Shown piece by piece: positions 32,873 to 33,448 of a stretch of 64,000 nucleotides of DNA. This DNA comes from Shigella phage sb2: the sequence record PQ666540; one strand, given 5' to 3'. Each line of letters begins with the position of its first letter. Position 1 is the first letter of the stretch. The position numbers and the translations under genes are program-made. The notes below the pieces were generated by a model. The model did no database searches. It was given only the letters and a program-made list of their open reading frames with translations, and had not been told where the DNA came from.

Positions 32873-33086
32873 ATTCTACTTCCTCACCCGTTCCCAAATC
32901 ATATTCAACTAAACGAATAGGTTCATGAATGCCATATCCTTGAACAGAAATTTCTGTCGTAGGATAAATTCCATCAATATCACCCATGGTCCACGCTTCA
33001 TTAAATTGCTGTTCGCCTGAATTACTAAACCATTCTGCGAAAGCATTTAACACATCTTTAGAACCTTCAATAATTATCTTTGCCAT
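32865..33086 (-). CDS. hypothetical protein (vs.5 position)
   Basis: 73-aa acidic ORF. Confidence 0.45.
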   Translation of the reverse strand: MAKIIIEGSKDVLNAFAEWFSNSGEQQFNEAWTMGDIDGIYPTTEISVQGYGIHEPIRLVEYDLGTGEEVEYD

Positions 33087-33448
33087 TACAGACTCTCAGT
33101 AAAGGTACGAGCGATAACGTCGCGCTGCTGTTCCGGAGTCAGAGAGTTAAAGCGAACTGCATAACCTGATACACGGATGGTCAGCTGCGGATATTTTTCC
33201 GGATGCTTAACTGCATCTTCCAGAGTTTCACGACGCAGAACGTTAACGTTCAGGTGTTGACCACCTTCAATTTTAACTGTAGGCTGTGATTCAATTTCAA
33301 TTTCACGGGCGTGCAAACCGTAGAAAATTTCTGGGTCTACAAAAGAGTCCTCTTTAAAGGTTTTAGAAACAATAATTCGTGCTTGAATACCATCTTCAAA
33401 ATAAATAGTACCTTTATGTGTGCCTTCAAGAATTTGATATGCTTTCAT
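33086..33448 (-). CDS. GrcA/YfiD-like glycyl-radical cofactor protein
   Basis: 120 aa; C-terminal ~60 aa with [29 protein letters not shown] glycyl-radical motif matching E. coli GrcA/PflB C-terminus as recalled. Confidence 0.8.

Follow-up and report, generated by a model that had tools for sequence, protein, structure and literature searches.

Pyruvate formate-lyase (PFL) that has been cleaved by oxygen can be brought back to activity by small glycyl-radical proteins acting as spare parts. Two such proteins have been validated experimentally, Y06I of phage T4 and YfiD (GrcA) of Escherichia coli; in the account of Wagner et al. (2001, BBRC 285:456) relayed in PMC8683613, PFL activase places a glycyl radical on both proteins, and both restore activity to the cleaved enzyme. 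YfiD is disordered over residues 1–60 and forms a structured radical domain over residues 61–127, and its N-terminal half improves the binding of cleaved PFL and radical installation, while being dispensable for catalysis (PMC8683613). The T4 gene encoding Y06I, vs.6, was counted by Nolan et al. (2006, PMC1524935) among the ORFs conserved across T4-like genomes, and a role in nucleotide metabolism was speculated upon there from its Gly_radical match.

Gene and biochemical role of vs.6 have been known since 2001 and, as this role is already in the literature, the present analysis adds no new function. What it does contribute is the nucleotide-level anatomy of a mosaic between phage and host sequence within vs.6. 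We found no description of this mosaic at the nucleotide level in the searchable literature, though it may still have been reported.

Shigella phage sb2 carries the ortholog of T4 vs.6

The window referred to below is the whole 64,000-nt stretch of sb2 DNA that was analysed. Comparison of its ORF map with the T4 annotation revealed an ATG-initiated gene placed, as in T4, between vs.7 and vs.5 in the tk–regB–denV early region (Table 1), with regB, vs.3 to vs.8, denV, e (T4 lysozyme) and nudE as surrounding genes. The 14 kb around it are 97% identical to Shigella phage pSs-1, a Tequatrovirus. The gene itself shares 97.5% nucleotide identity with T4 vs.6 over 363 of 363 nt (118 of 120 amino acids identical) and 98.9% with its counterpart in Hafnia phage IsaacDaniel, and a nucleotide search found relatives in 1,515 phage records. 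Context and sequence therefore identify the sb2 gene as the ortholog of T4 vs.6 (Y06I), annotated in RefSeq (NC_000866) as "autonomous glycyl radical cofactor GrcA". The initial annotation, made from the letters alone, had proposed a GrcA/YfiD-like spare-part protein that was probably the reported T4 homolog of YfiD; both proposals are borne out, by this identity and by the Pfam match given below.

Table 1. Features of the vs.6 locus and of the nrdD and nrdG genes of phage sb2, with positions in the 64,000-nt window
Feature	Position	Strand	Remarks and basis
nrdG, radical-SAM activase of NrdD	12546..13016	-	Pfam Fer4_12 5.9e-45, Radical_SAM
nrdD, anaerobic ribonucleotide reductase, the phage's other glycyl-radical enzyme	13013..14830	-	Pfam NRDD 3.4e-169, Gly_radical 1.3e-25
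vs.5 homolog, downstream neighbour of vs.6	32865..33086	-	ORF map, T4 synteny, PHROG 1986
vs.6 (Y06I) CDS, 120 aa, predicted GrcA-like spare part for PFL	33086..33448	-	ORF list, homology, synteny
Phage-type gene end: end of codon 118, codons 119-120, stop	33086..33095	-	10 nt; right edge of the putatively converted tract; alignment
Host-derived tract, glycyl-radical domain, residues 60-118	33096..33270	-	All 175 nt agree with one E. coli grcA allele (its nt 200-374)
Gly95 codon in RVSGYAV, predicted glycyl-radical site	33164..33166	-	Equivalent to GrcA G102 and PflB G734; alignment and PMC8683613
Phage-type 5′ half, codons 1-59 and first base of codon 60	33271..33448	-	GC, divergence from grcA, protein homology
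Predicted Shine-Dalgarno sequence of vs.6, GAGG	33453..33456	-	4 nt 5′ of ATG, overlaps the upstream gene's stop codon; from sequence
vs.7 homolog, upstream neighbour of vs.6	33455..33784	-	ORF map, T4 synteny, PHROG 2049

The stop codon of vs.6 overlaps the start codon of the next gene in the sequence TAATG. A promoter and terminator scan of positions 32500–35200 returned counts equal to the shuffled expectation. Upstream, the mechanically called vs.7 ORF (33455..33835, minus strand) exceeds the PHROG/T4 protein by 17 codons; the PHROG 2049 match covers residues 18–126 of this longer ORF, and the true vs.7 start is probably the methionine of MMTDTQ at ~33784. Further along the region, a 157-aa ORF between vs.8 and denV (34474..34947, minus strand) starts with MKTYQEFITEA, which we take to resemble the capsid-targeting N-terminus of T4 internal proteins. 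The genes ipII and ipIII, situated between denV and e in T4, are missing in sb2, where denV (35053..35385) is directly followed by e (35433..35927).

The Vs.6 protein matches several family models. PHROG 1209, a family listed as of unknown function, matches over the full length (E 7e-63), and Pfam Gly_radical (PF01228) matches residues 60–101 (E 2.4e-18, 67.1 bits, cut-off 22.2). The NCBIfam GrcA equivalog model TIGR04365 (InterPro IPR011140) aligns residues 20–120 to model positions 25–126 with 154.7 bits. This falls short of the curated cut-off of 170, which E. coli GrcA exceeds with 234 bits, because the N-terminal half of Vs.6 has diverged. The protein is a stand-alone one of ~14 kDa with a Gly_radical C-terminus and the RVSGYAV loop at residues 92–98, and its N-terminal half shows distant, but collinear and significant, homology to the N-terminal half of the GrcA type (YfiD residues 1–60). 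A full-length glycyl radical enzyme such as PflB/TdcE or NrdD, with a barrel of ~600–800 aa and active-site cysteines, is not encoded by these 120 codons, and TIGR01255 and other models of such enzymes are matched over just their last ~60 positions.

A 175-nt tract of vs.6 is identical to E. coli grcA

Residues 61–120 of sb2 Vs.6, 60 aa in all, agree without exception with residues 68–127 of E. coli GrcA, while residue 60 is isoleucine in sb2 and valine in GrcA. The initial annotation had described the last ~60 residues as identical or nearly so, quoting a 59-residue string that corresponds to residues 62–120, and the agreement extends well beyond motif-level similarity to the DNA: vs.6 nt 179–363 match E. 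coli grcA at 183 of 185 positions, a match shared by each of the 5,426 complete E. coli genomes. At the nucleotide level, E. coli pflB and tdcE are much less similar to this module than grcA is. In the alignment, the identical run opens with the second base of codon 60, continues unbroken until midway through codon 118 and is followed by two synonymous differences. The resulting 175 of 175 match is to the grcA allele of ~485 of the 5,426 E. coli genomes; this allele, with TCA at Ser94 as in sb2 and one relative, has a frequency of 9% in E. coli, and the TCC variant carried by most related phages is in turn 175/175 identical to the commonest E. coli grcA allele. Compared by host, the sb2 module matches E. 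coli at 180/182, Citrobacter at 166/182 and Salmonella at 153/182 positions; the match is specific to Escherichia.

Base composition changes along the gene together with identity. Between the N- and C-terminal halves, nucleotide identity to E. coli grcA steps from 42% to 99% at codon 60. The tract has a GC content of 48.6% and a GC3 of 41%, like E. coli grcA and within the top 1% of 183-nt windows by GC, against 33.9% and 20%, respectively, in the 5′ half and a mean GC of 35% over the 64,000-nt window. Outgroup phage genes for a near-identical peptide depart from E. coli at 28–47 of 182 positions, compared with 2 of 182 in sb2 (Fisher p 2e-8; binomial relative-rate test p 1e-12). The identity of the sb2 tract is therefore due neither to chance nor to protein constraint, but reflects DNA transfer. 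Recent capture of host sequence had been suggested in the initial annotation, and the nucleotide-level identity indicates that, in evolutionary terms, host DNA did enter the phage recently.

A search of the phage collection with E. coli grcA and its 200-nt flanks as the query matched 752 phage records, with ~645 isolate genomes at ≥90% identity. Assembly artefacts do occur at this locus, as one metagenome contig (L179, described below) is probably a chimera of phage and host. For sb2, however, the idea that the identity stems from an assembly chimera or contamination has next to no probability, given that its tract is bordered by phage sequence on both sides within one ORF, and that the tract recurs in the T4 reference genome and in these ~645 isolates. 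The same holds for selection or convergence without transfer, since identity at all synonymous sites and a host-like GC3 go beyond what selection on the protein could produce.

Identity by itself gives no direction, and the 3′ half of E. coli grcA could in principle have come from a T-even phage. We regard this reverse transfer as scarcely credible: the composition of the tract is that of E. coli rather than of the phage, E. coli grcA sits in a conserved ung–grcA–eamB context, and the divergence of its 3′ half from those of Escherichia sp., Citrobacter, Salmonella and Klebsiella parallels that of its 5′ half and follows taxonomy.

The N-terminal half resembles GrcA, and the tract lies within the reading frame

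The initial annotation had called the N-terminal half unrelated to GrcA, a claim that does not survive more sensitive comparison. When the N-terminal halves alone were aligned (59 residues of sb2 vs. GrcA 1–66), BLASTP reported an E value of 3e-5 with 33% identity over 39 aa, in a collinear alignment ending exactly at the junction. Profile–profile comparison of ten phage with 26 bacterial N-terminal halves using hhalign gave a probability of 86.7% (E 4e-6), and phmmer against the PDB aligned sb2 residues 22–120 with residues 28–127 of the YfiD NMR entry 6OWR. A bridging intermediate was found in a phage from a metagenome (L184, of the same type as L109–L114), the N-terminus of which matches GrcA at E 6e-12 and sb2 at E 2e-13. 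As judged from these alignments, the N-terminal half of Vs.6 is homologous, distantly and in collinear order, to that of GrcA. This homology therefore speaks against a host fragment placed on an unrelated ORF and for a complete phage homolog of long standing, in which host DNA later replaced the 3′ module. Purifying selection acts on the 5′ half (dN 0.054, dS 0.46 for sb2 vs. Mosigvirus).

The contigs of the intermediate type (L184 and L109–L114) carry a gene of 393 nt, whose N-terminus, …SIWLIEDNKARCLVAKEVKED…YEYREVEIQNQPTVK, lies between those of bacterial GrcA and the T4 type.

At the right edge of the tract, sb2 vs.6 reads GAG AGT where E. coli has GAA AGC. These are synonymous states of the phage lineage, as GAG AGT CTA TAA is common to Mosigvirus, Raoultella phage M26a and Enterobacter phage PF-CE2, and similarity to E. 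coli ends at the stop codon. The left edge lies at the invariant EGGQH motif, inside the reading frame, and coincides with the boundary between the disordered segment and the radical domain of YfiD. Owing to the phage-type last codons, both junctions thus lie inside the ORF. The search with grcA and its flanks places the left edge at one and the same base in more than 600 phage genomes; among its 752 phage matches, the 30 best-ranked all start at grcA nt 200 and end ≤10 nt from the stop codon, and no isolate phage genome among these best-ranked matches contained a longer host tract.

Jiaodavirus, Krischvirus, Pseudotevenvirus and the T5-like Tequintavirus possess a two-part gene as well, with a diverged, non-host-like 3′ module; the 3′ modules of other phage lineages are 70–90% identical to any sampled bacterial grcA or pflB/tdcE. 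The existence of such genes in other genera implies that the full-length phage gene predates the E. coli tract.

We conclude that sb2 carries a glycyl-radical cofactor gene of the T4 vs.6 type, the 3′ module of which very probably arose by gene conversion of a resident phage homolog with host grcA. An old, AT-rich and diverged phage homolog of grcA would have been present first, and codons 1–59 would descend from this phage version; homologous recombination with host grcA DNA would then have overwritten codons 60–118, with the flanking codons staying phage-type. Because the junctions are in frame and fall in blocks conserved between phage and host, homologous gene conversion is the most likely route and illegitimate capture a less likely one. 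In the latter, which corresponds to the earlier reading of this locus, a fragment of host grcA would have been fused to an unrelated phage ORF to form a new chimera. The sharp step in nucleotide identity and GC at codon 60 would fit such a fusion, as would the end of E. coli DNA similarity at the stop codon, yet we consider it improbable in view of the collinear homology of the N-terminal halves, the presence of this two-part gene, its 3′ module diverged, in the four other groups named above, and the phage-type last codons.

Age of the tract and the case for repeated exchange

Between sb2 (Tequatrovirus) and phiC120 (Mosigvirus), synonymous divergence in the 3′ half of vs.6 (dS 0.09) is five-fold below that in the 5′ half (0.46), and the neighbouring genes vs.7 and vs.5 reach 1.28 and 1.95, respectively. 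The difference in divergence between the two halves is significant (Fisher p 0.005). Measured against the 5′ half and the neighbours, the tract is thus much younger than the split between Tequatrovirus and Mosigvirus. Being common to both genera nevertheless, it must have spread among co-infecting T-even phages or been refreshed from the host. The uniform left junction favours a single conversion with subsequent spread among co-infecting T-even phages, but it could also reflect repeated crossovers forced into the invariant GAAGGTGG block. As such crossovers could mimic a uniform junction, there may have been more than one conversion event.

A more far-reaching scenario holds that the 3′ module of E. 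coli T-even phages is in continuing exchange with host grcA, the phage copy being overwritten time and again, through short homologous conversion tracts, by the host allele at hand. We regard this as possible but rather doubtful. Thirteen tract variants were counted in 11 phage sequences, of which 12 are synonymous, and four of these 12 match an E. coli SNP in both site and base (nine SNPs in 30 E. coli-like alleles); this coincidence has a hypergeometric p of ~0.004 over synonymous changes and is weaker when transition bias is allowed for. The E. coli module SNPs at positions 15, 42 and 105 (seven genomes) all three recur in phages, and TCA in sb2 and one relative vs. TCC in most phages was counted as a hint of recurrent exchange, as were the five-fold lower dS of the tract and a second module swap at the EGGQH junction in Krischvirus (described below). 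Pointing the other way, the combination 15G and 42C of one phage sequence (L091) was absent as an E. coli allele, the best match being 173/175; its haplotype is therefore no simple copy of a sampled host allele.

Two Tequatroviruses of Yersinia pseudotuberculosis, PYps32T and PYps47T (H124 and H125), carry an E. coli-type rather than a Yersinia-type tract (98.4% identity), so that the tract does not track the isolation host there. These Yersinia-isolated phages argue against fast tracking of the current host. If exchange were recurrent, the tract could mark recent host use, and the genome of a strictly virulent phage would contain a stretch drawn from the allele pool of its host.

Glycyl-radical modules in other phages

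The 3′ modules of ~70 phage sequences were compared with 80 grcA genes from GTDB, ~70 metagenome grcA loci, and E. coli pflB and tdcE. Near-identity to a host module was confined to Tequatrovirus and Mosigvirus among these ~70 sequences. The module of Jiaodavirus (Klebsiella phages) is 88–90% identical to Enterobacter and Raoultella sequences; since K. pneumoniae grcA lay outside the sampled loci, its donor may be a Klebsiella.

In Krischvirus RB49 (L009 369-785) and phage Whisky (L010 367-783), the 5′ halves of vs.6 are 97.4% and the 3′ halves 74% identical. Divergence begins exactly at the VEGGQH motif; the glycyl-radical module has thus been exchanged here independently, at the junction that is also used in sb2. 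The best match of the Whisky module is to E. coli pflB (~71%). In T5-like Tequintavirus genomes (L008, L128–L153), a 122-aa GrcA-like gene adjoins the tRNA cluster. Its module, with ..TQAM at the end, resembles pflB (77%) slightly more than grcA, and the gene may have been acquired separately, as a spare part of the PFL type.

One contig from a metagenome assembly (L179 1-954; OCHD01000040.1, 168534-169487 of 170927) is Mosigvirus-like up to the vs.6 tract, after which it continues through the grcA terminator into eamB. We considered it as an independent capture extending past the stop codon and rejected this reading: the sequence runs into eamB near the contig end, and the contig is therefore a probable assembly chimera seeded by the 175-nt identity. 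An identity of this length between phage and host is thus long enough to generate chimeric contigs in metagenome assemblies, of which one was seen.

Predicted function and relation to anaerobic metabolism

As the radical domain of sb2 Vs.6 equals that of E. coli GrcA residue for residue, we infer with some force that it works by the spare-part mechanism of Y06I and YfiD. [quoted passage not shown] PFL is the cell's source of formate, and formate is reportedly the reductant of class III ribonucleotide reductase, a finding said to go back to Mulliez et al. in 1995. A single-sequence AlphaFold2 model of Vs.6 reached a mean pLDDT of 39 and was set aside.

The genes nrdD and nrdG, named in the initial annotation as companions of vs.6, are indeed present (Table 1). 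In sb2, nrdD is a continuous ORF of 605 codons with the gene for endonuclease VII (gene 49, 14827..15300) directly upstream. The nrdD gene of T4 carries a group I intron, and sb2 therefore appears to be intron-less at that site.

Carriage of nrdD and nrdG by the same phage, together with the earlier speculation about nucleotide metabolism (Nolan et al. 2006, PMC1524935), might suggest that Vs.6 serves as a spare part or regulator for phage NrdD, or otherwise in nucleotide metabolism, instead of acting on host PFL. Several observations make this very unlikely. The radical module is identical to that of GrcA and of the PFL type: the C-terminal ends of PFL chains (residues 697–759) match it with 94 bits in phmmer, and the model for formate C-acetyltransferase with 89 bits. 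Moreover, vs.6 is not co-located with nrdD but lies 18 kb away, and the Y06I biochemistry, as relayed in PMC8683613, shows rescue of PFL. Action on host PFL remains our preferred reading.

Significance and comparison with known systems

If the gene conversion reading is correct, vs.6 offers a clean and datable case of a strictly lytic, host-DNA-degrading phage gaining host sequence by homologous recombination, with the conversion junction falling at a protein domain boundary. The part of Vs.6 that must fit host PflB and PflA has been kept literally host-identical. The N-terminal half, whose YfiD counterpart is implicated in the recognition of damaged PFL, is phage-specific and under purifying selection, which points to phage-specific tuning. 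Overall, we rate the significance of the mosaic as modest to moderate.

The closest described system is T4 Vs.6/Y06I itself (NP_049730; NC_000866 63557-63919), which shares with sb2 the gene order vs.7–vs.6–vs.5, the mosaic and its junctions. The two proteins differ at residues 54 and 73, with P54 and H73 in T4 and S54 and R73 in sb2. At the Ser94 codon, sb2 has TCA, the minority E. coli allele, whereas T4 has TCC, the major-allele state, and the T4 tract additionally carries one non-synonymous change.

Among other phages, the small genes of Krischvirus RB49, Jiaodavirus, Pseudotevenvirus and Tequintavirus have the two-part architecture of sb2 vs.6 and a conserved radical loop. The modules of T5-like phages and of phage Whisky, ending in ..TQAM or ..TEAM, are more PflB-like than the sb2 module. 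On the host side, the C-terminal domain of PflB (residues ~697–759) and TdcE has the same fold element and radical loop as sb2 Vs.6 and constitutes the piece that the spare part replaces; the sb2 module, however, is of the grcA rather than the pflB type.

E. coli GrcA (YfiD; P68066, PDB 6OWR) resembles sb2 Vs.6 in its layout: both proteins are small and autonomous, with a glycyl-radical domain at the C-terminus that follows a disordered or variable N-terminal half. In comparison, Vs.6 is seven residues shorter at the N-terminus, its N-terminal half has strongly diverged, and the NSFWLLD and ARC motifs of GrcA are lost or altered. Unlike its E. coli counterpart, Vs.6 belongs to a virulent phage, whose own signals direct its expression.
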